From Dehalococcoidia bacterium (GTDB lineage Bacteria; Chloroflexota; Dehalococcoidia; Lucifugimonadales; VXLM01): a stretch of 64,000 nucleotides of DNA. A model generated the notes under the pieces. It was not told the DNA's origin. It made no database searches and saw only the letters and a list, made by a program, of their open reading frames with translations. Positions 6,699 to 54,171 of the stretch are shown here, one piece after another. The translations under genes and the position numbers were made by a program. The stretch lies in NCBI GenBank assembly GCA_034423035.1, contig DAOUJF010000025.1:64349-128348 (forward strand), given 5' to 3'. Positions within the stretch are counted from its first letter, which is position 1; each line of letters starts with the position of its first letter.

Positions 6699-7853
6699 AT
6701 GAACCGAACGACCGACGTTGCCATAATCGGCGGAGGAGTTGTCGGTTGTTCCATTGCCTACCAGCTCGGCAAACGGGGCATCAGAAGCACGGTCTTTGAA
6801 AAGGACCGCCTTGCGTCGAGCGCGTCCGGAGCTACAGCAGGCATCGTGGGCCCGATCTGGTATGTTGACCACACGATAAAACCGTACTTCGAATTGGCGA
6901 TGCGCAGCCTGGACATGTTCCCAAAGCTGACCGAGGAACTCAAGGTTGCGGGGGTCGACCCCGAGTACCGCGATTCCGGCGTTATGAAGGTCGCCCTCAC
7001 CGACGAACTGCACGATGTCCTCAAGGAAAACCTCATCTGGCAGGGCGAACTCGGCATTGGCGTACACTGGATCGACCGCGACGAGCTTCGTGAGCGCGAG
7101 CCGCACATCACCCCCGAAGCTCAGGGGGCAGTCCTCTCTCCGCAGGAAGGCTCCATTCGCGGCGAGGCATTCGTCAACTCACTCGCACATGCAGCCTCCG
7201 CGCTCGGCGCGGTAATACTGGAGCGCACGGAGGTGACGGGCCTCGAATTCGACGGCAGCCGGGTCATCGGCGTCCGCACCGTCCTCAACGAGACTCACTA
7301 TGCCAACCATACCGTCCTTGCCGCCGGCGCTTGGACCGGTCTCGCGGGTCGCTGGCTCCCGGAGACCATTCCCGTGCGTCCGGTAAAGGGCCAGCGCATC
7401 ACCCTGCGGATGCCGGGCTTCCTTCCCAGCGGTCCGATCCAGAGCGTCATTCCCAGGAACGATGGCACGATGCTGGCCGCAGCCACCCGTGAGGAGGGCG
7501 TCTTCGATCATCGGATAACCGCGGCCGTCCAGGAGATGTTCAACAACGCCACCGCCGTGTACCCGATGCTGCGGGACGCTGAGTTCGTTGGAGCGAGGGC
7601 GGGAATCCGCCCCGGGTCTCCCGACGGGATGCCGATACTCGGCCCCGTGCCTGGATGGGAAGGGTTGAGCGTCGCGTCGGGACACGATCACGTCGGCATC
7701 ATCCTCAGCCCGGCGACCGGCGTGGACATGGCAGACTACATCGAGACGGGGGATGCCTCAGGACTCGACTTCTTCAGCATCGAGCGCTTCACGGACGGGC
7801 GGCCCCAGTTCAGCCCGGAGACCCTCTTCACCAACATCACCTACGACAAATAG
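6699..7853 (+). CDS. FAD-dependent oxidoreductase (DAO / glycine-oxidase-like)
   Basis: N-terminal dinucleotide-binding fold DVAIIGGGVVGCSIAYQLGKRG. DAO-family length and C-terminal GHDHVGI. Confidence 0.75.
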   Translation: MNRTTDVAIIGGGVVGCSIAYQLGKRGIRSTVFEKDRLASSASGATAGIVGPIWYVDHTIKPYFELAMRSLDMFPKLTEELKVAGVDPEYRDSGVMKVALTDELHDVLKENLIWQGELGIGVHWIDRDELREREPHITPEAQGAVLSPQEGSIRGEAFVNSLAHAASALGAVILERTEVTGLEFDGSRVIGVRTVLNETHYANHTVLAAGAWTGLAGRWLPETIPVRPVKGQRITLRMPGFLPSGPIQSVIPRNDGTMLAAATREEGVFDHRITAAVQEMFNNATAVYPMLRDAEFVGARAGIRPGSPDGMPILGPVPGWEGLSVASGHDHVGIILSPATGVDMADYIETGDASGLDFFSIERFTDGRPQFSPETLFTNITYDK

Positions 7854-7920
7854 CTCTCAACCAACACCAATTCGTCGCAGTGAACTAGGAGCGTAAAGTG
7901 GGAGCACTTCAATGAAAAAC

Positions 7921-7955
7921 CCCCACCGCCATTCCCGCGAAGGCGGGAATCCATC
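7921..7955. repeat. REP family 3 hairpin (CATTCCCGCG-loop-CGGGAATCC)
   Basis: ccattcccgcgaaggcgggaatccat. Family also at 27770-27823, 28463-28490, 44291-44345 and 60031-60070, and inside R1/R2. Confidence 0.7.
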
Positions 7956-8014
7956 GGGAGGGGCAGGCCAGCACATATTGGCAACACGTACAGTCCGAAT
8001 ACATTCGATGCTGG

Positions 8015-8437
8015 TTGGGAAAATGTGACCAGCCAACCGCAATGCCCCAAGACTTGAACCGCAGAGACCTCTCCGAAGACTACGACACGCTCGCACCGGA
8101 CGGCTCGGAAATACGGCTGCTGTCGTCAACGACCCGTGGCAGTATGGTCCACTGTACGCTGAATCCGGGAGAAGTGTCCTTGCCCGTCGCCCACAGGACC
8201 GTCGAGGAGGTCTGGTACGTCATCCAAGGGACGGGCCAAATGTGGCGCAAGTACGGCGACGACGAGCGGGTTGACGACGTTGCCCCGTGCGTGAGCTTGT
8301 CGATACCCGTCGGCGCTCACTTTCAGTTCAGGAACACCGGAAGAGGTCCCCTGCGCATCCTGATCGTCACCATGCCGCCGTGGCCGGGCGAGGATGAGGC
8401 TTATCGTGTCCCCGGACGATGGCCCGTCAAGGGCTAG
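8015..8437 (+). CDS. cupin-domain protein
   Basis: Single cupin barrel motifs HRTVEEVWYVIQGTGQMW and VGAHFQFRNTG. The start could be the internal M at 8039. Confidence 0.6.
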   Translation: MGKCDQPTAMPQDLNRRDLSEDYDTLAPDGSEIRLLSSTTRGSMVHCTLNPGEVSLPVAHRTVEEVWYVIQGTGQMWRKYGDDERVDDVAPCVSLSIPVGAHFQFRNTGRGPLRILIVTMPPWPGEDEAYRVPGRWPVKG

Positions 8438-8754
8438 GTTGCGCTTGACGTCATCTCGCCGCCGGACGGTGTATGGCCGTCACGCGCGGCACGCTTGCGG
8501 CAGGTGGGGCACCCACACTTCGGCTCAGTCCTCTGGACCATGTCGCCGAAGACCAGGGTGTAGAGATCGGAATCGCTGAGGCCGAGGTCTCGTCCGTTTG
8601 CCATGAACTCGTTCATTCTCGCGGTCTTGTCGCGCTCTTCAGCGCCGCTCAGGACTCCGCCGTTGGCGACGACACGCTTGGCATAGCCTCTCAGCGCCTC
8701 GAAGTGCTCGTCCATGAGTTTTTGTGCGTCTACGGTCTTCAATGATTCGGCCAT
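8434..8754 (-). CDS. hypothetical small protein with C-terminal CGCPTC motif
   Basis: GC3-rich ORF. I prefer the internal ATG at 8754, preceded by GGGGAGAAGAG. No family recognised. Confidence 0.4.
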   Translation of the reverse strand: MAESLKTVDAQKLMDEHFEALRGYAKRVVANGGVLSGAEERDKTARMNEFMANGRDLGLSDSDLYTLVFGDMVQRTEPKCGCPTCRKRAARDGHTPSGGEMTSSAT

Positions 8755-9009
8755 GCTGCTCTTCTCCCCATACCCCAACAGTAGTCCTTGAATTCTTATC
8801 ACTTCACCCGCCATCCGCTACAAGCACGTTCTCGGTTATGTTTTTCGGACTTTTCCAATATTCTTGAAAAACGGACTCAGACGCGATCAATCGCTCCACG
8901 AGAGGACCGACTCTGGGTGTGCCTTCTGGCGGCGCTTGTCTTTACGTTTGCTCAGGGGCTGAATACAATGCGGGAGGACTACAAACGAAACCCAGCAGGA
9001 TGAGAGTTC

Positions 9010-9786
9010 ATGTACCCAATCGACTTGAAGGGCAAGACCGGCATCGTATTCGGCATAGCGAACCACCGCAGCATCGCGTGGTCCATCGCGGAGATACTGC
9101 ACCAGGCCGGTGCGGACCTTGCCGTCGCCTACCAGAACGAGCGAGTTCGCGGCAGCGTGGAAAAGCTCGTCTCGGGGTGGGGAGGCAACACGCAGACCAT
9201 CGAGTGTGACGTCAGCGACGACGCGAACGTCGAGCGCGCGATCCAGCAGGTGGGCGAGAGCTCTGGCAAGATCGACATCATCGTCCACTCCATCGCCTTC
9301 GCCGACCGCGATGACCTCGGCGGAGCGTATATGAAGACGGGACGCGAGGGCTTCCGCACGGCCCTCGACGTGAGCGCCTACTCACTCATTCCCATTGCCC
9401 GTTACGCCGCTGACTACATGACCGAGGGCGGCAGCATCGTCGCGATGACCTTCCAGGCGGCCGAGCGCGTCTTCCCCGGCTACAACGTGATGGGCACGGC
9501 GAAGGCAGCGCTGGAGAACGCCGTCCAGCAGCTAGCCTCCGACCTCGGCGAGCAGGACGTCCGGGTGAACGCCATCTCCGCGGGGCCGCTCGATACGCTG
9601 TCGTCCCGCGTCATCAGCAAGTACCGTGACATGAAGCGCGTTCACGCCGAACGGTCACCCATGAAGCGCAACATCACCTCCGAAGAGGTCGCCAAGACGG
9701 CGCTCTTCCTGTGCAGCGATCTCTCGAGCGGCGTCACGGGCGAGATCGTCCACGTCGATACCGGCTACAACATCATGGGCATTTGA
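9010..9786 (+). CDS. fabI: enoyl-[acyl-carrier-protein] reductase (NADH) FabI
   Basis: GIANHRSIAWSIA N-terminus. Catalytic YNVMGTAKAALE (Tyr-x6-Lys). Length 258 aa. Confidence 0.85.
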   Translation: MYPIDLKGKTGIVFGIANHRSIAWSIAEILHQAGADLAVAYQNERVRGSVEKLVSGWGGNTQTIECDVSDDANVERAIQQVGESSGKIDIIVHSIAFADRDDLGGAYMKTGREGFRTALDVSAYSLIPIARYAADYMTEGGSIVAMTFQAAERVFPGYNVMGTAKAALENAVQQLASDLGEQDVRVNAISAGPLDTLSSRVISKYRDMKRVHAERSPMKRNITSEEVAKTALFLCSDLSSGVTGEIVHVDTGYNIMGI

Positions 9787-9821
9787 GGCTGACGGCCCGA
9801 CCCACTGATATAAATCCCACC

Positions 9822-10199
9822 ATGCCCACGTACGAGTACATCTACATCGAGGTTGAGGACAACGACAACTGCGACTACATGCCCATGCAGGTCTACGAGC
9901 CGCAGGCAGAGTCGCGGCCCGTCACTCGCGTCCTGCTCGAAGAGCCGGACCGCCCGCACGGCCTCTACGAGGTGACAGGCTGGAGCAGCGAGGACGACGG
10001 CACGCCGGTTGAAGCGATGTACGCACCCGTGTCCGACTCAGGACAGGCAAGGGCGCACCTCATATATGGCGGCGACTGGGGCGTTCGCCTCAAGCCGGTG
10101 GGCACTGACGAAGAGTGGGACGTTGATAGCCCCAACCAGTTCGGGGAGCCGTACCTGATTCTGTTGGACGACGAGGCGATCCAGGCGGAAGAAGGGTAG
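9822..10199 (+). CDS. hypothetical, strongly acidic 125-aa protein
   Basis: High-GC3 ORF starting MPTYEYIYIEVEDNDN. The listed ORF start at 9711 overlaps the fabI end, so the internal ATG at 9822 is chosen. Confidence 0.5.
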   Translation: MPTYEYIYIEVEDNDNCDYMPMQVYEPQAESRPVTRVLLEEPDRPHGLYEVTGWSSEDDGTPVEAMYAPVSDSGQARAHLIYGGDWGVRLKPVGTDEEWDVDSPNQFGEPYLILLDDEAIQAEEG

Positions 10200-10253
10200 G
10201 CGCGTTCAATGCTATGCTATTAGCAGCGTTGCGGTGAGTGGAGGGATAGGATC

Positions 10254-11597
10254 ATGGACAGCATAACGATCGAAAACTTCCGATGCTTCCGCCAGAGGCA
10301 GACCGCACGCCTTGCCCCTCTGACCCTCCTCGTAGGCGAGAACAGCACAGGCAAGACCTCGTTCCTTGCGCTGATCCGTGCGCTGTCTGATCTTACCGTA
10401 GGCTTTCAGGCTCAGGACATCCTCGTAGGCATTCAGCCACCGGACTTCAAGGAAGATCCCTACGATTTGGGCAGCTTTGATGAGATCGTCCACTACCGGG
10501 GCGGCCGGGAAGGTCGCACTGGAACTTTTAACGCTACCGTAACCCGAATTTCAAAATACGAAACCGGTGACGAACCATACCAGTTCCATGTCACTTTTGG
10601 CAAGAAGGGCACTACGCCAGTTCCAATAAAAACGCGCTTTGCCCATGGGGATACTTGGTCAGAGCAGGATTTCTCAACGGTTGGGGCATATACGCTTCGT
10701 TTTGGAACTCACAGAGGTAGCTGGGAGTGGAATGCGCCTGATGAATTCAGGACCTTATTTGAGTTTCGTGAGGGCAAGCTACCCATGGTTTTCTATTTTC
10801 CAAGAGTACTTAACGAAAATATAACGCCGTTACATGCCTCTCCGCCTGATACACAGGAAGATCATGAGTCACTGGAAGACATGGTTTTCAATTTTCGTCT
10901 TGACACACAGCGTCCATTTGCAAGCGCTCCCGTACGTTCTAAGCCACGTCGTACCTACGATCCAGCTCGCACCACGTCCGACCCCGAAGGCGATTATGTC
11001 CCTATGTATCTCGCCAGCATGTTTTTTGAGAACAAGAAGACGTGGACAAAGCTCAAGAACGAGCTCGAATCATTTGGGAAGTTCGCTGGTCTCTTCGATG
11101 AGGTCTCTATCAAATCGTTGGGTAAGAGAGACAGTGAACCCTTTCAACTGCAAGTCAGAAAGTCCAGTGGCCGATCCAAGGGACCTTGGCGCAACCTTAT
11201 CGATGTTGGTTATGGGGTCAGCCAAGTCTTGCCTGTGATAACGGAACTGTTACGCCCGGACGCTCCCGATACATTTCTCTTACAGCAGCCAGAAGTTCAC
11301 CTCCATCCCAGTGCGCAGGCTGCATTAGGGAGCTTGTTTTGTCAGGTCGCCAGCCGGGACCGTCAGTTGATAGTCGAAACGCACAGCGACCACCTGCTGG
11401 ATCGTGTGCGAATGGATGTCCGTGATGGCAAGAGCGACCTGAAACCCGAGGACGTTTCCATACTATTCTTCGAGCGCGGTGACTTGGACGTTCACATCCA
11501 CTCACTTCGAATCGACGAAGAAGGGAACATAGTAGACGCCCCCGACGGCTATCGCAGTTTCTTCATGGAGGAGACGGCGAGGTCTCTGGGGCTCTGA
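10254..11597 (+). CDS. ABC/OLD-type AAA ATPase (AAA_15/AAA_21-like) with DUF3696-like C-terminus
   Basis: Walker A LLVGENSTGKTS. C-terminal FLLQQPEVHLHP (Walker B/D-loop region) and LIVETHSDHLLD (H-loop). Tail DAPDGYRSFF. SD GGAGGGA upstream. AT-richer than the flanking genes. Confidence 0.75.
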   Translation: MDSITIENFRCFRQRQTARLAPLTLLVGENSTGKTSFLALIRALSDLTVGFQAQDILVGIQPPDFKEDPYDLGSFDEIVHYRGGREGRTGTFNATVTRISKYETGDEPYQFHVTFGKKGTTPVPIKTRFAHGDTWSEQDFSTVGAYTLRFGTHRGSWEWNAPDEFRTLFEFREGKLPMVFYFPRVLNENITPLHASPPDTQEDHESLEDMVFNFRLDTQRPFASAPVRSKPRRTYDPARTTSDPEGDYVPMYLASMFFENKKTWTKLKNELESFGKFAGLFDEVSIKSLGKRDSEPFQLQVRKSSGRSKGPWRNLIDVGYGVSQVLPVITELLRPDAPDTFLLQQPEVHLHPSAQAALGSLFCQVASRDRQLIVETHSDHLLDRVRMDVRDGKSDLKPEDVSILFFERGDLDVHIHSLRIDEEGNIVDAPDGYRSFFMEETARSLGL

Positions 11598-11600
11598 TCT

Positions 11601-12089
11601 ATGTGCGCCATCATGGATGCGAATGTTGCAGGTGAAGTCTTCATAAAGAGGCCCAAGCCGGCAGGGCAACCACCGACGGCGGGGGAGAAGTTCCTCATTT
11701 GGATCAAGGAAGGACCCGGCCACTTGGTAGTTGGGGGCAAGCTGCGGAAGGAACTTGGCAGAGTGAACCTCTTTCAAGAATGGGCTCGGGAAGCTCAGCT
11801 CTCTGGCAAGTTGCGCAGTATCAATGACGAACGTGTCAACCAGAATACAGCGAAACTCGAAGCTAAGAGGAATTACCGTTCAAATGATCCACATGTCATT
11901 GCGCTAGCGCAAATTAGCGGTGTGCGCCTGCTGTACACCAACGACAAAAGGCTGCAAGACGACTTTAGGAACGAAATGTTGATCGACGATCCGCAAGGGC
12001 AAATCTACGAAACATTGAAGGGCAAGAAGTTCACGGCTACTCACAAGGGACTCCTCAGCCGAGAAGATCTATGTCCGCTCAAGCGTTGA
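11601..12089 (+). CDS. small PIN-like domain protein (putative nuclease partner of the ATPase)
   Basis: ATG lies 3 nt after the ATPase TGA. Acidic positions follow a PIN-like pattern: IMDANVA (N-terminus), SNDPHVIALAQ, LLYTNDKRL. 162 aa. Confidence 0.5.
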   Translation: MCAIMDANVAGEVFIKRPKPAGQPPTAGEKFLIWIKEGPGHLVVGGKLRKELGRVNLFQEWAREAQLSGKLRSINDERVNQNTAKLEAKRNYRSNDPHVIALAQISGVRLLYTNDKRLQDDFRNEMLIDDPQGQIYETLKGKKFTATHKGLLSREDLCPLKR

Positions 12090-12118
12090 CTGCCCACCTT
12101 CCACTCGCGATTATGCCC

Positions 12119-13036
12119 CTAACCCAATCCGTCCTCGAACTCGATTATCTCGTCGATTATCTCGTTGGCGACTCGCTGATGGTAGGCGTCGAAGGGGAGG
12201 ATCGGCTGGCGGGCTCTTGATGTGGTGAACAACCCACGACGGTGTGAGTAGAGCTTGTAGAAGTGGATCGATATGTCGATGTGCTGGTGCGCCCAAGCCA
12301 AATAGGGGAGGGTGCGCTCGAAAAGGGTCTGGGCTTCATCGCGGTTCCCCGCGTGGTAGTGCTTGAAGATTTCGACGAACGGCTTGTTGATAGCCGTCGT
12401 GGTGACGAAGCTCGTGCCCCGGTCGAGCGCCTCGATGAGCTGCGGCAGCGACCAGCCCGTTCCGACCGGCATCAGGCCGTCCGTCGCCTCGATGATCTGG
12501 GTCATCTTGTACCCTGCAGGCACAGTCTCCAGCTTGAGGCACCGGAACGCGTCGATCTCCTCCCAGAGCTCGCGGATGGTGTCGAGGCCCATGCCATAGC
12601 CGTTCCAGTGCAAGTCCTGGATCATGAGCATCGGCAGGTCGACCTCGGCAAGCTCGTGCATGAAGGCCTTCACCTCTGCCTTGTCCTCGATGATGTCCAT
12701 CGGAGCCTGGCACAGGACACCGTCGGCCCCCGCCTCGACGGCGTGACTAGCGAGGCGTTGAGACCGGCGAACGTCGGGGTCGCTGACGCCCGCCGTCACG
12801 TGGATGCGTCCGTCGACCATGCGTATGACCTCTTCGACGAAGCTCGTCCGCTCCTCGTCGGAGAGTTTTGTGACCTCGCTGGCGACGGCGGGCATGATGC
12901 AGCCGGAAATGCCGTCTTCGATGCTCCGCTCGATGAGTCGTTCCAGCGACGGGAAGTCGATGCGGTCGTCCTCCGTCCACGGCGTGTGGATGATCGGGAC
13001 GACGCCGGATAGGGGGTATGCGGTCTTGTCAGTCAT
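12119..13036 (-). CDS. dihydrodipicolinate synthase / N-acetylneuraminate lyase family class I aldolase
   Basis: DapA-family pattern (GVVPIIHTPWTED..., GISGCIMPAVASE, GADGVLCQAP). ATG at 13036 preferred over the TTG at 13054 used by the ORF track. Confidence 0.7.
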   Translation of the reverse strand: MTDKTAYPLSGVVPIIHTPWTEDDRIDFPSLERLIERSIEDGISGCIMPAVASEVTKLSDEERTSFVEEVIRMVDGRIHVTAGVSDPDVRRSQRLASHAVEAGADGVLCQAPMDIIEDKAEVKAFMHELAEVDLPMLMIQDLHWNGYGMGLDTIRELWEEIDAFRCLKLETVPAGYKMTQIIEATDGLMPVGTGWSLPQLIEALDRGTSFVTTTAINKPFVEIFKHYHAGNRDEAQTLFERTLPYLAWAHQHIDISIHFYKLYSHRRGLFTTSRARQPILPFDAYHQRVANEIIDEIIEFEDGLG

Positions 13037-13054
13037 TGGTTGTGTTGGCAGCAA

Positions 13055-13807
13055 CTACGATTCTAGGACTTTCCGCATATCGAACGGATCTGGCCATCGG
13101 ACAAATGCTACAGAGCGCGACAGTTGGCGACAGTCGGCCATTGTCAGGTCACGCCGATAGGATAACGCTCGCCGAATTGACTCTGGTCGGCTTGCATAGC
13201 GGCCGACGACTTCCTCAGCGTTAGTTTGGTGTTCGCTGTACTGTAAAACGATCACGTAGCTACGATCACAGTTCTGCTGTTTGGAGTACCAAGAGCCGAC
13301 ATCAAGAAGGCGTATAACTTGGTCTCGTTCCGCATCGTAGGTCGTGCACTCGCTAACAGGGGACCGATACTTGGCTTCCACAAGCACCACAGCCTGCCGT
13401 CCGACCGTGATCATCACGTCCGGTTCAGAGGCTCCTTCCCTCTGTGGTCGACTTGGAGGCGGATTAAGCTTTGGCCAGAATCGCACTTTGGCGGATGGGA
13501 CGCCCTCAAATACTTGAGAATGTACTTCTCCAGCGAAGGCTTCACGAAGAAGCCGAGTGAGCATCAGGGTTTTCTTCGCTTCGTCGTGGAGTAAGGGACT
13601 CCAATAGTGCCAAGTGCAAGCATCTTCAGAGTTTTCACTGCATAATTTCGGCAACCCTTTTTGCTTACCTTTGGGGAAAGACTCCGCGACCTTGGAAAGG
13701 AATTCCGGATGTGCTGTATCAGTATGTTTCAGCAAGGGGTGTGCTTCCGGGGTCTTCCAAACCATGACTCCAGAGGTAGTGACAACATAATCACCCAGTG
13801 ACGTCAT
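13055..13807 (-). CDS. PD-(D/E)xK (restriction-endonuclease-like fold) protein
   Basis: Core motif SEPDVMITVGRQAVVLVEAKYRS (D-x13-E-x-K). Internal ATG at 13807 overlaps the amidase stop as ATGA. AT-richer than its neighbours. Confidence 0.6.
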   Translation of the reverse strand: MTSLGDYVVTTSGVMVWKTPEAHPLLKHTDTAHPEFLSKVAESFPKGKQKGLPKLCSENSEDACTWHYWSPLLHDEAKKTLMLTRLLREAFAGEVHSQVFEGVPSAKVRFWPKLNPPPSRPQREGASEPDVMITVGRQAVVLVEAKYRSPVSECTTYDAERDQVIRLLDVGSWYSKQQNCDRSYVIVLQYSEHQTNAEEVVGRYASRPESIRRALSYRRDLTMADCRQLSRSVAFVRWPDPFDMRKVLES

Positions 13808-15000
13808 ACGGTTGAACAGCCTCCCACCTCCACGGCGAACCGCATGAGCATTTCGTCCGATCCTCGCGCGCCCATGAGCGACAGGCCGACCGGAAGGCCG
13901 TCCACGGTTGCAAGGGGCAGGTTCAACTGGGGGCAGCCCGACATGCCTCCGATGCACGTGAGACTTGCGATTCGGTAGCCCAACTCCACCCGCTCAGGAA
14001 CGGGCATATCGGGAGGTGGCGCAGGGGCAGGTGACGTTGGCATACACATGATAGCGCCATCTGCCAGCAGATCGTTCATCCTGCTCCTGACCACTCGACG
14101 CACGGCGTTGCTTGCCGCCAATTGGTCGTCGGTCACCGACATGCCATTCAGGTAGCGGATTGCAACCTCGAAGGCGACGCGTGGATTCGTCTGCTCAATC
14201 CAGTCCCGCTGCGTGTCCCACGCCTCCCGCATCTGCAGATTTCGCTGGTGCGTCATCCATTCATCGATTCCGTCCGGAGCAACTCGCTTCGTCGTTTGAT
14301 GTCCGACCATTCCCGCGACGGCATCGACGACAGGTTGGAGCGCTTGCAGAACATCCTCGTCGAGCACCTTGAAGAGGTCGTCCGCGATGACGAGGCGGCT
14401 GGGCTGTGCAGGTTCGCCCGTCGATTGGAGGAGAACTTGTCCTACCCGCTCGAACGTCTCAGCGTCGCGGGTGAACCATCCGACGGTGTCGAAACTTGCA
14501 GCCTGTGGGAGCACGCCGTCGAGGGAGATGCGGCCATGGGTGGGTCGCAGGCCGTAGAGGCCGCAGAAGCTGGCGGGCATCCGCACGGAGCCTCCCGTGT
14601 CCGAGCCGAGCGCGAAGTCGACCACGCCGCCCGCGACGGCGGACGCAGACCCGCTCGATGACCCTCCGGGCACCCGCCCCGGCGCCGCTGTGTTCACCGG
14701 CGTGCCGTAATGGGGATTCGTCCCCATGATGCCGCGCGTCAGTTCATCGGTGTGCGTCTTCCCGACGAGACTCGCCCCGGCGTCGAGGAGGGCCTGGACG
14801 GTCGGTGCGGTTTGCTCAGCCGGACCGTGAGTGCGTTCCCAGTCGGGGTTACCCCCGCCCGTCACGTGACCGGCAACGTCGAAGATGTCCTTGGCGGCAA
14901 AGGTCAGACCGGACAGCGGGCCGTCAGCAGCGCCCGGAACGTGGACGTCCAAGTTCGCGAATGCGTTGAGGTGGTCGGTTGTCACACGGCGTTGATTCAT
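13804..15000 (-). CDS. amidase (amidase-signature family)
   Basis: Gly/Ser-rich signature GGSSSGSASAVAGG, plus FAAKDIFDV and GTNPHYGTP. Confidence 0.85.
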   Translation of the reverse strand: MNQRRVTTDHLNAFANLDVHVPGAADGPLSGLTFAAKDIFDVAGHVTGGGNPDWERTHGPAEQTAPTVQALLDAGASLVGKTHTDELTRGIMGTNPHYGTPVNTAAPGRVPGGSSSGSASAVAGGVVDFALGSDTGGSVRMPASFCGLYGLRPTHGRISLDGVLPQAASFDTVGWFTRDAETFERVGQVLLQSTGEPAQPSRLVIADDLFKVLDEDVLQALQPVVDAVAGMVGHQTTKRVAPDGIDEWMTHQRNLQMREAWDTQRDWIEQTNPRVAFEVAIRYLNGMSVTDDQLAASNAVRRVVRSRMNDLLADGAIMCMPTSPAPAPPPDMPVPERVELGYRIASLTCIGGMSGCPQLNLPLATVDGLPVGLSLMGARGSDEMLMRFAVEVGGCSTV

Positions 15001-16156: not shown

Positions 16157-16546
16157 CTACCCGCCCATGGCCGCAATACGTCGGGCCATCCAGGTGATGT
16201 ATGCCTTGCGAGTCATTCCCCGGCGACAGGCCTCGCTGTCAATGAACTCCGCAACGCCTTCATCAAGGGTCAGTCCCGCACGAACGCTCTTGCCTGAAGT
16301 CCGAATGAGCGGTATCGAAGTTAGCTGACTTCCCTTCGGAGTATCGATGGACTGGAACGCGCTGGGCTGAGCGAGCTCCTCTCCGTCCTTCTCAGCCTCA
16401 ATCGCGTAGTCTCGAAGCGCGTCTTCGGCATTGAATAGCGCCTCGTCAACCGTGTGTCCCATTGCGCCAACACCGGGTATGTCCGGGAAGACAACACCGT
16501 AGGCGCCTTCTTCGCCATCGATGAGCGCAGGATATCGAGTTGTCAT
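16157..16546 (-). CDS. hicB: HicB-family antitoxin with C-terminal ribbon-helix-helix-like segment
   Basis: YPALIDGEEGAYGVVFPDIPGVGAMGHTVDEALFNAEDALRDY is a typical HicB N-domain. Lies directly downstream of hicA. Confidence 0.8.
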   Translation of the reverse strand: MTTRYPALIDGEEGAYGVVFPDIPGVGAMGHTVDEALFNAEDALRDYAIEAEKDGEELAQPSAFQSIDTPKGSQLTSIPLIRTSGKSVRAGLTLDEGVAEFIDSEACRRGMTRKAYITWMARRIAAMGG

Positions 16547-16552
16547 GTCAGT

Positions 16553-16744
16553 TCACTCCGTCCATCCGGCCTTCTTCGCTATAGTGCGAGCCATTCCATT
16601 TGAGAGTACCGCGTGACGCGGCAATGTAATGATCCCTCTTATTTTCGGATTCCTATATATGTCATGATTCGAACCATGACGGTCAAGGTACCAACCCTCT
16701 CGCTCAAGTCTCCGCTGAACGCGCCGCCTGTTTGTCTCATCCAC
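16553..16744 (-). CDS. hicA: HicA-family mRNA interferase toxin
   Basis: 63 aa with LEREGWYLDRHGSNHDIYRNP (HicA GSH-type motif). 6-nt gap to hicB. Confidence 0.8.
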   Translation of the reverse strand: MDETNRRRVQRRLEREGWYLDRHGSNHDIYRNPKIRGIITLPRHAVLSNGMARTIAKKAGWTE

Positions 16745-48447: not shown

Positions 48448-50019
48448 CTAAGAAGGGTGTCCTCGTCTCAACGCTCTTCCGGGAAGCGCGCCGGAGTGCT
48501 CTCCGTCATCGATGACGACCTCGCCGTTGACGATCACGTAGTCGATTCCGACCGGGTAATGCTTTGGGTCACCCAAAACGGCATCGGTTCTAACCGTGTC
48601 GGGGTCGAAGACCACGATGTCGGCCTTGAATCCGTCGCGGAGTACGCCGCGGTCGGACAAGCCCAGCCGCTGCGCCGGGAATGAGGTCATCTTTCGAATC
48701 GCCTCCGGCAAGCGAAGATGCTTCTCGGCCCGTACGAACTCGGCCAACACGATCGGGAAACAGCCGTATGAGCGCGGGTTCTGGTACTCACCGAGGAGGA
48801 TTGCGTCGCTCGCGATTATGCCATACGGGTGCGACACGAAGGCCGGTAGGGTGTGCTGGTTGGTGCCCGTTCCAACGATGTGGACCGAGAGGTTCTCATC
48901 GACGAGGAGGTCCATGATCGCGTCGACCGGGTCCTGGCTGCGCATGTGCGCGATCTCGGTTATCGACTTGCCGTCGTACTGCATGTTGTGCGGCTGTTTG
49001 AAGTTGGTCAGCCACGTCTCGGCGAGGGTTTCGCGGTCGACCTCACGTCTGATGCGCTCGCGGTCGTCGGAATCCTTGAACGCGGCGATGGCGCGCTCGG
49101 GACCGCCGTCCATCGTCCAGTTTGGCACCAACATCAAGAGCGTCGTGCCGGAATATGGGTATGAGTAGCAGTCGAAGGTAACGTCCATGCCTTCGTCCCG
49201 ACCGCGCTCGACGAGACCGATGTAATCGAGGTGGCTTCCGACGCCCTGGCGGGGCTGTCGGTAGTGGGTGAGATGAACGGGGATGCCGGAGCGTCGCCCT
49301 ATGTCGAGGGCCTCCTCCCAGGGGGCCAGCAGTCCAAACTCCCTGAGGATGGCTCGGGTGTGGGTGTGGTAGAAGCCTCCGAACCGGGCCGAGACCTCCG
49401 CGAGAGCGACAAGCTCGTCGGTGCTGGCGAATGAGCCTGGCGGGTAGTCGAGGCCCGACGAGAGACCCCACGCGCCCTCTTCCATGGCTTCTCGCGTAAC
49501 GGAGCGCATGTCTTCGATCTCGGAAGTAGTGGCGGGACGGTCGTTCCAGCCCACGCTCCAGATGCGCACGGGCGCATTGCCCAAGATGATCGCGACGTTG
49601 ATTGAGACCGCGTTGTCGTACTTGCCGTATAGATCGAGGACGCTGAGCCAATCGGGTGATCCCGGCGGGTACCCATTGAAGCCTGAGTCGAGCCAGATCG
49701 CTCTCTGCAGTTCTTCCTGTGACTTGTAGGGAACGTGCGATATCCCGTCGATGCCAACCAACTCGGTCGTCACGCCCTGACGCACCTTTGGGTCGTGGTG
49801 TGGCTCACCGAGCATGGTCAGTCCGGCGTGGGAGTGGAGATCGACGAATCCTGGGCAGACTACCTTGCCTTGAGCGTCGATAGAGCGCACGGCTTCCAGG
49901 CCGGAGTGGTCGCCCCTATGGATGGCGAGGCGATTGTCCTTTACCAGGACCGAAGCGCGAAACCCGGGGCTGCCGGTGCCGTCAACGACCATACCGTTGT
50001 GGATCGCCAGATCAAGCAT
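48448..50019 (-). CDS. D-aminoacylase (N-acyl-D-amino-acid deacylase) family amidohydrolase
   Basis: LAIHNGMVVDGTG, PGFVDLHSHAG, and a C-terminal VIVNGEVVIDDGEH typical of the family. Confidence 0.8.
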   Translation of the reverse strand: MLDLAIHNGMVVDGTGSPGFRASVLVKDNRLAIHRGDHSGLEAVRSIDAQGKVVCPGFVDLHSHAGLTMLGEPHHDPKVRQGVTTELVGIDGISHVPYKSQEELQRAIWLDSGFNGYPPGSPDWLSVLDLYGKYDNAVSINVAIILGNAPVRIWSVGWNDRPATTSEIEDMRSVTREAMEEGAWGLSSGLDYPPGSFASTDELVALAEVSARFGGFYHTHTRAILREFGLLAPWEEALDIGRRSGIPVHLTHYRQPRQGVGSHLDYIGLVERGRDEGMDVTFDCYSYPYSGTTLLMLVPNWTMDGGPERAIAAFKDSDDRERIRREVDRETLAETWLTNFKQPHNMQYDGKSITEIAHMRSQDPVDAIMDLLVDENLSVHIVGTGTNQHTLPAFVSHPYGIIASDAILLGEYQNPRSYGCFPIVLAEFVRAEKHLRLPEAIRKMTSFPAQRLGLSDRGVLRDGFKADIVVFDPDTVRTDAVLGDPKHYPVGIDYVIVNGEVVIDDGEHSGALPGRALRRGHPS

Positions 50020-50138
50020 ACATCCCTCCAGACGAACAGGAACTTACCGATTCGGACACGGCGGGTATTCTACCAGCATCGAGCGGTAGTTCTGCTAGAG
50101 CGACTTCGGGGAATGTTCTTGAAATCGCCCCTTCACGG

Positions 50139-50191
50139 CAGACGCCGTTCCGTCCCAAATCTACTCTTGCTTCGTGACGGAACGGCGTCTG
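50139..50191. other. 16-bp perfect inverted repeat with 21-nt loop, downstream of the small basic-protein gene
   Basis: CAGACGCCGTTCCGTC (50139-50154) pairs with GACGGAACGGCGTCTG (50176-50191). There is no U-tract, so it is not a classical intrinsic terminator. Confidence 0.4.
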
Positions 50192-50288
50192 TAAACGTAG
50201 CTGAGAGTCGGAGACGGGCGTCTCGACTCAACGACTAATCAAGTTCGGACATGCCTCACGTGCAGGTGGGGCGTGTACGGCAGTGGAC

Positions 50289-50540
50289 CTACATGCTGGA
50301 CTTGCGTGGGCGGCCTCTTCTGCGCGCGGTGGTCCAAAAATAGACATCGTCGCCCGATCGTTTGATAGTAAGCTCGACTCCGGCTGACTTGGCTGCCTGG
50401 TTCAAGCGTCGTCTTATTGCTATCGCGCTCTCGTCTTCCGTCGCAGACAGCATTCCGGCTTGGCCCGACTGCAATTCACGAATATATCCCAAATACTCGT
50501 GAATAATCTTTGCCCTTTTACCTGAAGCCGTTTTGGCCAT
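50289..50540 (-). CDS. hypothetical small basic protein with C-terminal AT-hook-like RRRGRPRK
   Basis: 83 aa from the ATG at 50540 (AGAGGAAG upstream). No family recognised. AT-richer DNA. Confidence 0.4.
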   Translation of the reverse strand: MAKTASGKRAKIIHEYLGYIRELQSGQAGMLSATEDESAIAIRRRLNQAAKSAGVELTIKRSGDDVYFWTTARRRGRPRKSSM

Positions 50541-51004
50541 GGCTTCCTCTACCGAAACGATTGCTAATCTTGACAATTGCACCCTCCCTGATGTGTCATC
50601 TGCAGTTTGTATGACGGAGTGGAATCTCTCGTTATTTGGGAACTTAACTCAGGTATGAATCTCTGGTGAACCCATGACCCGTAGAGTGGAATAGCGCCCT
50701 ATTCAGAAATTAGCATACGGTAGCGACTAGCACTTTGTCAAAGGGTTGCAAAGCGTGAGGGAATCCGGTTATGAATCGCTCGATGAGTCTCAAGTAATTC
50801 AACTAAAGTAATGAGTATCAGTATCAATAACTTTTGGAGAAAGCAGAACTCATTCCTCGTATGCCACGGCAAGCGCTTAGGAGAAGATGATCTTCACATT
50901 TAGCGCCGCTTCCGCATCTGCTTAGTGACGTTGATAGTCTCATTTGCTAAACTCTCCTCCACCACGAAACTGCGAATCGAGTCTCAAAGTTCAGGAGAAG
51001 ATGT

Positions 51005-51910
51005 ATGATATTCCCAAGTGCTGAGATGGACGCCATCGCAAGGAAGTTCGACGGGCGCATAGGCTTCTATCTTGAAGACATCGTGACCGGCGAATCGCAT
51101 GAGTACGCTTCCAGCCAACGATACCCGACGGCCAGCGTCTGCAAGATCACGGTAATGGCCGAGCTATTCCGACAGGATGCCGAGGGAATGTTGTCGCTAG
51201 ACGACCGGATGCGGTTGGAGGACCGGTACTCAGCACACGGCTCCGGCCAACTAAAGCTAATGCAGGACGAGCCGGAGATATCGTTGCGAGATTACTGTCG
51301 CATGATGATTACCATCAGCGACAACATGGCGACTGACCTTCTGATGGAGACCGTTGGACTCGCGAACGTCAACGCTTTTCTGGATCGTCTTGGTTGTCCA
51401 AACACGCGAACGAGCGTCACGATGGGCCGGTACCATTACCGCATGACGTACCAAGATCACCTGCCCACCAATCGAGCCAACGACGTGCTGCAGGCGGAGG
51501 CGTCTGCGGCCGGGGCCAACGACTTCAAGAGCGTTTCGTACATGGATTCTCCGGACAACAACGTGGCCGCACCTGCCGAGATGGGGCGCATCATGAAGCG
51601 GCTGTATGAAGGCACTCTCGTCAGTTCCGATGCGTCGCTTCAGATGCTTGAGATGATGGAGAACGCTCGCGATCTTCGCATGATTCGCCGCGATCTTCCG
51701 CGCGATATCGTCGTCGCCCAGAAGAGCGGCTCCAGCGGGCGGATCAAGGGTAACGTGGGCATTGTGTACCTTCCGAGCGGACCGATGATTGTCTCGGCTT
51801 TCGCAACCGCCAACTCGAACGATGCCCGGGCGGACGAGGCCATTGCGGAGGTATGTCGGCTGGCCTACGCCGCGTTCTGCCCGGAGGTTCTCGAATCCAT
51901 CGGCCCATAG
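51005..51910 (+). CDS. class A beta-lactamase-fold serine hydrolase, no recognisable signal peptide
   Basis: S-x-x-K (ASVCK), SDN (ISDNMATD), KSG (QKSGSSG). AGGAGAAG lies 7 nt upstream of the ATG. Confidence 0.7.
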   Translation: MIFPSAEMDAIARKFDGRIGFYLEDIVTGESHEYASSQRYPTASVCKITVMAELFRQDAEGMLSLDDRMRLEDRYSAHGSGQLKLMQDEPEISLRDYCRMMITISDNMATDLLMETVGLANVNAFLDRLGCPNTRTSVTMGRYHYRMTYQDHLPTNRANDVLQAEASAAGANDFKSVSYMDSPDNNVAAPAEMGRIMKRLYEGTLVSSDASLQMLEMMENARDLRMIRRDLPRDIVVAQKSGSSGRIKGNVGIVYLPSGPMIVSAFATANSNDARADEAIAEVCRLAYAAFCPEVLESIGP

Positions 51911-52068
51911 CTAATAAGGGTCGCCGAATGGCGCTCTAGGGGCCGAATATGACTCTCCACGAGTCTGCGGACGCTGCGTTTTCGTCACTCCGTGTCGTAG
52001 GTTTGTGGTACATTATCAAGCGTCGATGGAATGGAATTGAAGATACACAGCAAGGAGTCGAAGGAAAG

Positions 52069-54171
52069 ATGACGACGGAAGGTAACGTCACTGAAGCTGA
52101 GATCGCCTCCCATTGGAAGGAGGAGGAAGTTATTCACCCCAGCCCCGCTTTCATCGGGCAGGCCAACCTGTCTGACCCGGCGGTGTTCGATCGCTTTACC
52201 CCTGACAAATTCCCTGATTGCTTCAACGAATACGCCAACCTCTTGTCGTGGGACAAGTATTGGCATACGACCCTTGACGACTCCAACCCTCCGTTCTTCA
52301 ATTGGTTCGTGGGCGGGCGACTCAACGCCAGCTACAACTGCGTCGACAGGCACTTGGAAGAACATGCCAACAAGGCTGCGTTCATCTGGGTCTCCGAGCT
52401 CGAGGACGAGCCGGACATCGTACTCACCTTTCGCGAACTGTACGTTCGCGTCAACGAAACTGCTTCCCTATTGCAGAGTTTGGGACTCAAGGCGGGTGAC
52501 CGCGTTACGCTTCATATGCCGATGATCGTTGAATTGCCTATCACCATGCTCGCCTGTGCACGACTGGGAGTAATTCACTCGGAGGTCTTCGGCGGGTTCA
52601 GCGGCGCGGCGTGCGGCGACCGAATCGTCGATTCGGGCAGTTCGATTCTGATCACCGCTGACGCCTACCATCGGGCAGGTACCCTGCTTGACCACAAGAT
52701 CAAGGCAGACGAGGCTGTGGAGGTTGCAGAGAACGCAGGCGTAGAGGTGGAGAAGGTATTGATATGGCAGCGCTATCCAGGTAAATACTCGTCGCCGACG
52801 CCGATGGTTGGTGGACGAGACGTCTTCGCCAATGACCTGATTCAAGAGCACAAGGGCAAGAGAGTCGCTCCGGAATCTCTTCCTGCCGAGCATCCGCTCT
52901 TTTTGATGTACACGAGCGGGACCACCGCAAAGCCAAAGGGTGCGCAGCACAGTACCGGAGGATACCTCGCTTACGCCGCGGGAACGTCCAAGTATTATCA
53001 GGACATCCATCCTACGGACACTTACTGGTGTCTCGCCGACATCGGGTGGATTACCGGTCATTCCTACATCGTGTATGGACCCCTGTCTGTCGCCGCGACG
53101 GGAGTCCTGTTCGAGGGTGTGCCGAACTACCCCGATCCGGGCCGGGCATGGCGCGAGGCCGAGCGTCTGAACGTCAATATCTTCCACACCGCTCCGACGA
53201 CGATCAGGATGCTGAGAAAGGCCGGGCCGGACGAGCCCGCAAAGTACAACTATCACTTCAAGCACATGACGACCGTGGGCGAGCCGATTGAGCCGGAAGT
53301 CTGGCGGTGGTACTACGACGTTGTCGGCAAGGGTGAAGCCGCAATCGTCGATACGTATTGGCAGACAGAGACCGGTGGGTTCATCGGCGTTACCCTTCCT
53401 GCCCTCCAGCCCATGAAGCCCGGAAGTTGTGGGACGGGAGCGCTCGGCATCGAGCATGTGGTGTTCGACGAGAACGGCAACGAAATCGAGCCTGGTAGCG
53501 GGGTTGCCGGAAACGTGTGCATTAGAAACCCCTGGCCCGGGCGTATGCAGACCGTTTGGGGGGACGACCAGCGGTTCATCGACACGTACTATGCAAAGTT
53601 CAACAAGGACCCTGAGAGCAAGGACTGGCGGGACTGGCCGTACATGACCGGTGACGGCGGGATCCAGGCCGCAGACGGCTACCTCCGCGTGGTCGGACGG
53701 CTGGACGACGTAATCAACGTGGCAGGCCACCGGCTTGGTACGAAGGAGTTGGAGTCCGCGACGTTGACAGTTGAAGCTGTTACGGAGGCTGCTGCAGTGC
53801 CGGCCTTCGACGAACTCAAAGGTCGGTCGCCTGAGATGTACGTCTCGATACACGCAGGCCACGACCCTGACGAGGTTGTGACCCAGGTCAAGGCGGCAAT
53901 CACGCAGATAATCGGGCCGATAGCAAGGCCCAAGTACGTCTGGATTGCCCCCGACCTTCCGAAGACCCGTTCGGGCAAGATCATGCGGCGCGTGACGGCC
54001 GCGATATCCAACTTCGTGGACGTTGGCGACGTCACGACCCTTGCCAACCCCGAAGTGGTCGACGAGATTAGAGAAATCGTGCAGAAAACGAAGGTCGCCG
54101 CCGGTGACGTGCCGGCGGCGGTCGCAAAAGAGATGACAGAAGAGGTTCAACGCTTCGGCGATGAGGGATGA
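52069..54171 (+). CDS. acs: acetate--CoA ligase (acetyl-CoA synthetase)
   Basis: NWFVGGRLNASYNCVDRHL, YTSGTTAKPKG AMP-binding motif, TYWQTETGG, RSGKIMRR. Internal ATG at 52069 preferred. Confidence 0.9.
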   Translation: MTTEGNVTEAEIASHWKEEEVIHPSPAFIGQANLSDPAVFDRFTPDKFPDCFNEYANLLSWDKYWHTTLDDSNPPFFNWFVGGRLNASYNCVDRHLEEHANKAAFIWVSELEDEPDIVLTFRELYVRVNETASLLQSLGLKAGDRVTLHMPMIVELPITMLACARLGVIHSEVFGGFSGAACGDRIVDSGSSILITADAYHRAGTLLDHKIKADEAVEVAENAGVEVEKVLIWQRYPGKYSSPTPMVGGRDVFANDLIQEHKGKRVAPESLPAEHPLFLMYTSGTTAKPKGAQHSTGGYLAYAAGTSKYYQDIHPTDTYWCLADIGWITGHSYIVYGPLSVAATGVLFEGVPNYPDPGRAWREAERLNVNIFHTAPTTIRMLRKAGPDEPAKYNYHFKHMTTVGEPIEPEVWRWYYDVVGKGEAAIVDTYWQTETGGFIGVTLPALQPMKPGSCGTGALGIEHVVFDENGNEIEPGSGVAGNVCIRNPWPGRMQTVWGDDQRFIDTYYAKFNKDPESKDWRDWPYMTGDGGIQAADGYLRVVGRLDDVINVAGHRLGTKELESATLTVEAVTEAAAVPAFDELKGRSPEMYVSIHAGHDPDEVVTQVKAAITQIIGPIARPKYVWIAPDLPKTRSGKIMRRVTAAISNFVDVGDVTTLANPEVVDEIREIVQKTKVAAGDVPAAVAKEMTEEVQRFGDEG

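Follow-up and report, generated by a model that had tools for sequence, protein, structure and literature searches.

Positions 10,254–12,089 of a 64,000-nucleotide (nt) stretch of DNA from a Dehalococcoidia bacterium (GenBank assembly GCA_034423035.1, contig DAOUJF010000025.1, positions 64,349–128,348 of the forward strand; hereafter the window) encode an ABC ATPase and, directly behind it, a small PIN-fold protein. We read this pair as an anti-phage module that is complete with its two genes, belongs to the DUF3696 ABC-ATPase clade and would act by abortive infection or growth arrest, and give this reading a probability of about 0.78. An earlier note on the window had assigned the pair to the defence class in which an OLD/ABC-type ATPase works with a nuclease, and had supposed the pairing itself to be undescribed. 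The class assignment holds, and by analogy with characterized systems a defence role of the family is very probable; the pairing, however, has precedents, i.e., HEC-03, which combines a DUF3696 ABC ATPase with a PIN protein, and Menshen, in which NsnB is predicted to clamp the PIN-like domain of NsnC. What is new here is a distinct and very widespread PIN family, lacking a model in PADLOC v2.0.0, on a HEC-03-like architecture with an ATPase of the NsnB clade.

The association of the two genes is supported from both sides. The PIN profile gave 359 matches in species-representative genomes, and the genome-locus analyses cover the best 79 loci of these matches. An ATPase homologue lies directly upstream of the PIN gene in 77 of the 79, and the other two are at a contig edge. 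From the ATPase side (37–64% identity), the PIN family is present in each of the 71 metagenome loci that extend far enough downstream, found by hidden Markov model (HMM) in 67 and by tblastn in four more; those four had appeared PIN-less under the open reading frame (ORF)/HMM filter, and tblastn places a PIN directly downstream in every one of them. None of the 71 carries a HEC-03-type PIN. The genes are adjacent in 77/77 and 71/71 informative loci, in agreement with the synteny that the earlier note had looked to, and their order is always ATPase then PIN in both searches. Three Rhodothermales loci were considered as cases of the opposite order and rejected, two (L008 and L017) being tandem duplicated pairs and the third (L003) having an upstream end that is too short. 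Measured from where the ATPase alignment stops, the PIN start follows after 4–46 nt in 72 of the 77 loci, the other five being tandem-pair or degraded-ATPase loci. No third conserved gene was found across the 79 loci, and DUF262 does not recur among the families of 71 upstream neighbours.

The two proteins co-evolve, with ATPase and PIN distances correlated at a Mantel r of 0.61 (p 0.001). Furthermore, the guanine-plus-cytosine (GC) content of the pair is below that of its flanks in 76 of 77 loci (Wilcoxon p 3e-14), and pairs ~92% and 91% identical occur in metagenome-assembled genomes (MAGs) assigned to Gemmatimonadota and Latescibacterota. The two genes are an obligate, mobile and horizontally acquired unit. 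On the PIN side the hosts span at least 10 phyla, with many sponge-symbiont lineages, and are labelled Dehalococcoidia, other Chloroflexota, Rhodothermales, Nitrospirales, Latescibacterota, Entotheonella, Poriferihabitaceae, Candidatus Synechococcus spongiarum, Binatia, Gemmatimonadota, Nitrospinota, Acidobacteriota and Proteobacteria; the more distant members are contigs from the general metagenome collection of JGI. The closest ATPase relatives of the window are from Chloroflexota.

Within the ATPase, Pfam recognizes AAA_21 (2.4e-21), AAA_15 (2.5e-21) and, at residues 396–432, DUF3696 (1.1e-5, 25.9 bits, cut-off 22). PADLOC ranks NsnB first (2.5e-49, 166.9 bits), ahead of PDC-M55A (1e-35, 121.6 bits), HEC-03B (2e-31, 107.5 bits) and AriA (3e-24), with GajA, PtuA and Old matches near 1e-12; the NsnB match is full length and aligns residues 1–433 with profile positions 2–331 of 345. 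By this ranking the closest systems are not PARIS and Septu, to which the pair had been likened, with NsnB, PDC-M55A and HEC-03B well above AriA and PtuA. PDC-M55, a three-gene candidate of unclear composition, was uninformative as a comparator. A real HEC-03 ATPase, used for calibration, scores 765 bits with HEC-03B, 177 with NsnB and 126 with PDC-M55A, while the window protein reaches 107 bits with HEC-03B, which is its third-ranking profile. By its sequence, the window ATPase belongs to the DUF3696 ABC-ATPase clade together with HEC-03 and NsnB, and the calibration places it as a sister of these two, inside neither family. A sequence search of the PDB returned only distant matches to OLD (6p74, 1.8e-9), GajA and PtuA, and with 29 bits the match to the NCBIfam model for PtuA stays far below the cut-off of 500. 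The AlphaFold 2 (AF2) model of the ATPase has a predicted TM-score (pTM) of 0.82, and its Foldseek matches are Rad50/SMC heads and PtuA.

The ATPase motifs that had been recognized by eye (Table 1) are present and proved near-invariant in 75 relatives. In Walker A, of the family form G[ED]NSTGKTS, residues G28, G33 and K34 are present in 75/75 members, and T35 and S36 in 74/75. Five of the six positions of GYGVSQ are invariant in 75/75, V322 being V or I. Walker B in OLD/Gabija-type ATPases is D/E-E; Q344 and Q345 of the present family are invariant in 75/75, within an essentially invariant LLQQPEVHLHP. The region between residues ~90 and 225 is hypervariable, with a mean pairwise identity of 0.275 compared with 0.72–0.78 for the N-lobe, C-lobe core and tail, which makes it a candidate trigger-sensing region. 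The DUF3696 tail is the proposed docking site for the PIN protein, by analogy with the AlphaFold 3 (AF3) model of NsnB–NsnC (PMC12065111).

The 162-residue partner matches Pfam PIN below the cut-off (E-value 0.0022, 19.1 bits versus 23.6), and PIN is recorded for many of its homologues. The PIN fold suggested by the earlier note is borne out by the AF2 model (35 homologues; mean predicted local distance difference test score, pLDDT, 92.2; pTM 0.88) and by the top Foldseek matches in the PDB, i.e., PAE0151 (6e-4), VapC from M. tuberculosis and Rickettsia, FitB, Utp24, Nob1 and HARP. The Foldseek probabilities for VapC, FitB, Utp24 and Nob1 are 0.89–1.0, and the TM-scores of ~0.45–0.58 are consistent with a divergent PIN that bears a C-terminal extension of ~40 residues. 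A PDB sequence search with the PIN profile gave no meaningful match. Of the acidic residues that had been assigned to the active site, D6 and D96 stand, whereas D113 does not; the last catalytic aspartate is D115, and E51 is also conserved. The tetrad D6, E51, D96 and D115 is conserved at 98–100% in 206 family members, and model and sequence together indicate a single-domain, stand-alone PIN with an intact catalytic D-E-D-D site.

Conservation in the same 206 members extends to D121, S94 and H98 (99–100%) and, beyond the catalytic acids, to Cys2 (97%), His98 (100%) and Cys158 (95%). These last three could be a metal site or a disulfide; the HEC-03 PIN family likewise has an invariant cysteine near the C-terminus (Q-L-C-P). 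Against 1.84 billion representative proteins, the PIN profile retrieved 2,032 clusters at E<=1e-3 (representatives at 50% identity), and nearly all of the best 150 representatives are stand-alone proteins of ~120–210 residues. One database protein of 279 residues (P0330) joins an N-terminal ATPase fragment (residues 1–72) to a complete PIN, and probably reflects a deletion or an assembly error. PADLOC v2.0.0 has no match for the window PIN at E<=1, nor for the PINs of L008 and L059 at E<=0.01. In PHROGs the PIN has no match, and no relative was found in the viral contigs scanned with its profile; therefore, there is no evidence of carriage by phage or prophage. The PIN clade of the window carries an insertion of ~6 residues at positions 16–24. 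In two Dehalococcoidia loci of the same context, L054 and L066, the ATPase is 71% identical to that of the window (90% in the tail) and the PIN only 49%, and the window-clade PIN may have diverged unusually fast or have been exchanged by recombination.

HEC-03 (Hma-embedded candidate 3) from Pseudomonas cichorii (WP_025259138.1 and WP_025259137.1) comprises an ABC ATPase annotated as "DUF3696 domain-containing protein" followed by a VapC-like PIN of 157 residues, and was discovered embedded in Hma systems (Payne et al. 2024, bioRxiv 10.1101/2024.01.29.577857). It lowered the plaquing of at least two phages, for which both genes were needed, and the strains were grown without isopropyl β-D-1-thiogalactopyranoside (IPTG) owing to apparent toxicity (bioRxiv 10.1101/2024.01.29.577857). 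The window pair has the same arrangement of two genes, an ATPase and directly after it a tightly coupled PIN of ~160 residues. The DUF3696-tailed ATPases are collinear (27% identity, E-value 4e-25) and have the motifs DVG[FY]GVSQVLP, xQPE[IV]HLHP and E[ST]HS[ED]HLL in common, GFGVSQ of HEC-03 matching GYGVSQ of the window family. Moreover, all four VapC-like catalytic positions align between the PIN family profiles, and in 11 of the 79 loci the pair has the niche known from HEC-03, between HmaB and HmaC. The two systems differ in their PINs, which have no BLASTP similarity and reach an hhalign probability of 18% (E-value 1.3e-3), and PADLOC HEC-03A recognizes the PIN of P. cichorii (9e-86) but misses all three window-family PINs compared with it. 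They differ also in Walker B (EQ in HEC-03, QQ in the window family), and the window copy lies outside any Hma system. As judged from the profiles, the window PIN resembles that of HEC-03 at the superfamily level only.

Menshen (NsnA–NsnB–NsnC) requires NsnA, a sensor with ParB-DUF262 and ParBDB domains that is encoded upstream of NsnB, and a two-domain NsnC composed of an inactive PIN (inPIN) and a toxin; AF3 puts the inPIN between two DUF3696 tails of NsnB, the Walker B of NsnB is reported as EN, and all major NsnC inPIN families lack catalytic residues (PMC12065111). NsnB resembles the window ATPase in its ABC fold, DUF3696 tail, GxG signature and non-canonical Walker B, it is the best PADLOC match of that protein, and the gene that follows it begins with a PIN-fold domain. 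However, neither the window nor its relatives have an NsnA (ParB-DUF262) gene, and the window partner is a single-domain PIN of 162 residues that keeps D-E-D-D and has no C-terminal toxin domain. Because NsnA is absent and the PIN is single-domain with its catalytic residues in place, the window pair is not a Menshen system (for Menshen see also Millman et al. 2022). The Menshen survey started from NsnA and was therefore blind to NsnA-less pairs, and the paper makes no mention of HEC-03 (Li et al. NAR 2025, PMC12065111).

The similarity to PARIS, Septu, Gabija and OLD lies in the logic of an ABC ATPase with a nuclease effector; the window ATPase differs from all of them in its DUF3696 tail, and their scores are far below those of NsnB and HEC-03B. 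The AriA match (3e-24) is partial, and the partner is a PIN, not the DUF4435/Toprim protein AriB of PARIS. PtuA of Septu is among the structural neighbours of the window ATPase, but matches its N-terminus only (~1e-11), and there is no HNH (PtuB) gene. For Gabija (GajA–GajB), the GajA match is ~1e-12 and the pair has no helicase partner.

A link to known defence loci comes from the Hma systems. The pair adjoins HmaB (DUF1156 methylase, 1.7e-47) or HmaC (DUF499 ATPase, 1.7e-88) in 14 of the 79 loci and lies between both in 11, and such embedded pairs often stand alongside HEC-01A/B-like genes (AAA_21 plus DUF4276) and DUF433, the latter being found in 7 loci. In the Rhodothermales MAGs the ATPase–PIN module is duplicated within the Hma island, with two tandem pairs directly 3' of HmaB in L008 and L017 (4679–8638); L003 probably has the tandem arrangement as well. 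Another layout is common to Nitrospirales and Binatia MAGs (L004, L012, L021, L048 and L077), where the order is HmaB, (DUF433), HEC-01A-like, HEC-01B-like DUF4276, ATPase, PIN, a second HEC-01A-like gene and HmaC. This amounts to three ATPase-based modules in one Hma system, an arrangement shared across phyla.

We propose a mechanism by analogy with HEC-03, the NsnB–NsnC model, PARIS and Septu, in which the ATPase serves as sensor and regulator and the PIN as effector. ATPase dimers or tetramers, assembled via the ABC heads, would hold the PIN inactive, and the PIN would probably be gripped between paired DUF3696 tails, as in the published NsnB–NsnC model. The hypervariable insert would recognize a phage cue and thereby shift the nucleotide-bound state of the heads, which, given the invariant QQ Walker B, may bind ATP and hydrolyse it poorly and so act as a switch, not as a motor. 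The PIN would then be released or activated, its D-E-D-D site would cleave RNA as VapC-type PINs do, and translation, phage replication and growth would stop.

Several observations weigh against a defence module of this kind. Phage protection, the need for both genes and toxicity have been shown for the HEC-03 relative only, and would extend to the window family by analogy; at the family level no homology between its PIN and that of HEC-03 is detectable, so that the transfer of function is likewise an analogy. Segment-wise covariation of ATPase and PIN is weak, with partial r of 0.25 for the tail, 0.27 for the insert and 0.05–0.20 for the other three segments, and the 90% identity of the tails of the window and L054 goes along with only 49% identity of their PINs. 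The QQ Walker B might abolish nucleotide-dependent regulation altogether, and the substrate of the PIN may be RNA or DNA, RNA cleavage being a proposal by analogy. Finally, the defence-island location envisaged in the earlier note applies to the 14 loci that adjoin HmaB or HmaC, but the flanking ORFs and gene calls do not place the window pair inside an Hma system, and this pair and most related loci are solitary insertions among metabolic and housekeeping genes with no defence island.

An unlikely alternative is that the pair is a toxin–antitoxin (TA) or addiction module, in which the VapC-like PIN is the toxin, the ATPase replaces VapB, and the function is to stabilize the region or a mobile island. 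The VapC-type PIN fold with its intact acidic tetrad and the tight translational coupling of the two genes would fit such a role, as would the Pfam description of AAA_21 (putative AbiEii toxin, type IV TA system), the TA genes nearby (HicAB in the window, DUF433 in 7 loci), the toxicity of HEC-03 on induction and the maintenance of the pair at one chromosomal site in a Dehalococcoidia lineage. However, a 447-residue ABC ATPase with a hypervariable insert is much more elaborate than an antitoxin. Classical VapBC has a small DNA-binding antitoxin first and the toxin second, whereas here there is no VapB-like antitoxin, the effector comes last after a large ATPase, and that ATPase is found in every locus; the conserved C-terminal extension of ~40 residues, with Cys2, His98 and Cys158 conserved at 95–100%, further separates the window PIN from VapBC. 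Pairs are embedded in Hma systems, and HEC-03, which has an equivalent architecture, protects against phage. A TA role and an abortive-infection role do not, moreover, exclude each other.

That the pair is a decayed Menshen system, from which NsnA and the effector domain at the C-terminus of NsnC have disappeared, would account for NsnB as the best PADLOC match (2.5e-49, full length) and for the PIN-like start of the gene after NsnB. This explanation is largely refuted and very improbable, as two genes are the norm in ~150 independent loci and no DUF262/ParB gene recurs next to them, the PIN tetrad is conserved at 98–100%, in contrast to the major NsnC inPIN families without catalytic residues, and the PIN family comprises ~2,000 representative clusters, of which the best 150 are nearly all stand-alone. 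Such strong conservation of the PIN argues for purifying selection on a working two-gene unit. A housekeeping function in RNA processing or DNA repair, with a RecF/SMC-like ATPase and a PIN or FEN-like nuclease, could be read from the weak match of the N-terminal 45 ATPase residues to RecF and SMC_N and from the Rad50 and SMC heads at the top of its Foldseek matches, but we regard it as refuted. RecF (TIGR00611) reaches 25.7 bits, well under its cut-off of 172, and covers residues 2–45, the P-loop region, only, so that the ATPase does not fall in a housekeeping clade, which the earlier note had named as a refuting condition; the ATPase has no coiled coil. The patchy occurrence across phyla with near-identical copies in different phyla, the GC content systematically below the host flanks, the tandem duplications and the embedding in Hma systems also speak against housekeeping.

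A more far-reaching and tentative suggestion, which we consider possible but rather doubtful, is that the family represents the ancestral type of minimal DUF3696 system, in which the ATPase holds a catalytically active PIN as its effector, and from which Menshen evolved by loss of PIN catalysis, conversion of the PIN into an inPIN docking adaptor for swappable C-terminal toxins and addition of a ParB-DUF262 sensor, the QQ ATPase being a non-hydrolysing sensor of nucleotide state. If true, QQ nucleotide-state sensing would be an activation logic unlike that of PARIS and Septu. The HEC-03 and Menshen papers do not draw this ancestral-pair connection (bioRxiv 10.1101/2024.01.29.577857; PMC12065111).

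The coordinates of the pair in the window are listed in Table 1.

Table 1 Features of the ATPase–PIN pair, numbered from the first letter of the window
Feature	Position	Strand	Detail and basis
ATPase ORF	10254-11597	+	447 aa (amino acids); ORF listing
PIN ORF	11601-12089	+	162 aa; ORF listing
GGAGGG, Shine-Dalgarno-like	10240..10245	+	8 nt 5' of ATPase ATG; read from sequence
Gene junction TGA-tct-ATG	11595..11603	+	TGA = 11595-11597, PIN ATG = 11601; sequence
Walker A / P-loop GENSTGKTS, residues 28-36	10335..10361	+	Conservation in 75 members
Hypervariable insert, residues ~90-225	10521..10928	+	Low identity; beta-rich insert in AF2 model
GYGVSQ signature-like motif, residues 319-324, in place of LSGGQ	11208..11225	+	
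Walker B region FLLQQPEVHLHP, residues 341-352	11274..11309	+	QQ where D/E-E usual
H-loop region ETHSD, residues 375-379	11376..11390	+	Essentially invariant (75 relatives)
DUF3696 tail, residues 396-447: two beta-strands and terminal helix	11439..11594	+	Pfam; AF2 secondary structure
PIN catalytic residues	D6 11616-11618, E51 11751-11753, D96 11886-11888, D115 11943-11945	+	

Both ORFs and the 3-nt gap between the ATPase TGA and the PIN ATG agree, in the ORF listing and in the sequence, with the description in the earlier note. The ORFs share one reading frame, with only the TGA and one codon between them, a junction indicative of translational coupling. Upstream of the pair are fabI and a 125-residue ORF without a family match, and downstream a convergent DHDPS-family gene ends 29 nt 3' of the PIN stop, as expected from the proposed position between a host-like and a convergent gene; relatives with 93% ATPase identity hold the pair at the same fabI/DHDPS site. 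The low GC content that had been counted by hand is confirmed, the pair having 0.521 compared with 0.593 for the whole window, which falls in the bottom 0.5% for windows of this size. The GC minimum of the window falls within the pair, and GC at third codon positions is 0.56–0.60 in the pair versus 0.87 in fabI. The reported lack of flanking repeats and transposase genes also stands within what was scanned, with only short matches of a chance-level kind around the pair and no transposase domain in the flanking ORFs scanned with Pfam or in Pfam-annotated gene calls (window 6699–14577). Promoter and terminator scans at the locus gave results no better than shuffled sequence.

The 125-residue ORF (window 9822–10199, + strand; an acidic product, MPTYEYIYIEVEDND...) lies between fabI and the ATPase gene, has a host-like GC content, and is kept at the same position in the Dehalococcoidia relatives L054 and L081–L084 but not in other loci of the pair; it is probably a lineage-specific host gene outside the module. 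On the other side, the DHDPS-family gene (window 12119–13054, − strand) is intact and encodes 311 residues, whereas in L081–L084 (~9886–10827; ATPase 93% identical) it is split into ORFs of ~193 and 96 residues, which may reflect a pseudogene or a long-read frameshift error. A second patch of low GC (0.51–0.56; window 13055–13957, − strand), situated between the DHDPS gene and an amidase gene, holds an ORF of 250–300 residues that has no match in Pfam, PADLOC, NCBIfam or PHROGs and contains a stretch, VLVEAKYRS, that by eye resembles a putative PD-(D/E)xK-like motif. The closest relatives, L081–L084, are without this ORF, DHDPS directly abutting the amidase gene there, which points to a separate and more recent insertion. 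Farther downstream, a HicB-like antitoxin gene (1.3e-15) is paired with one for a HicA toxin (2.6e-12) (window 16157–16744, − strand); the HicB-like gene was called only in L083 among the four closest related contigs, so this HicAB element appears to be variable. Windows of 1836 nt with GC below 0.55 occur also at ~49400–52600, a region with amidohydrolase and class-A beta-lactamase (PF13354, 2e-51) ORFs.

These findings do not overturn current understanding, because both the architecture and its defence role have already been shown for HEC-03. In practice, the ATPase would come up as an orphan NsnB, and pipelines based on PADLOC v2.0.0 would probably overlook the pair, above all in the genomes of sponge symbionts and in other environmental genomes, where it is common. 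The family bridges HEC-03 and Menshen, and suggests that the DUF3696 tail together with the PIN forms a conserved interface between ATPase and effector. Its spread over at least 10 phyla, largely of sponge symbionts, illustrates the exchange of defence genes in a host-associated community.

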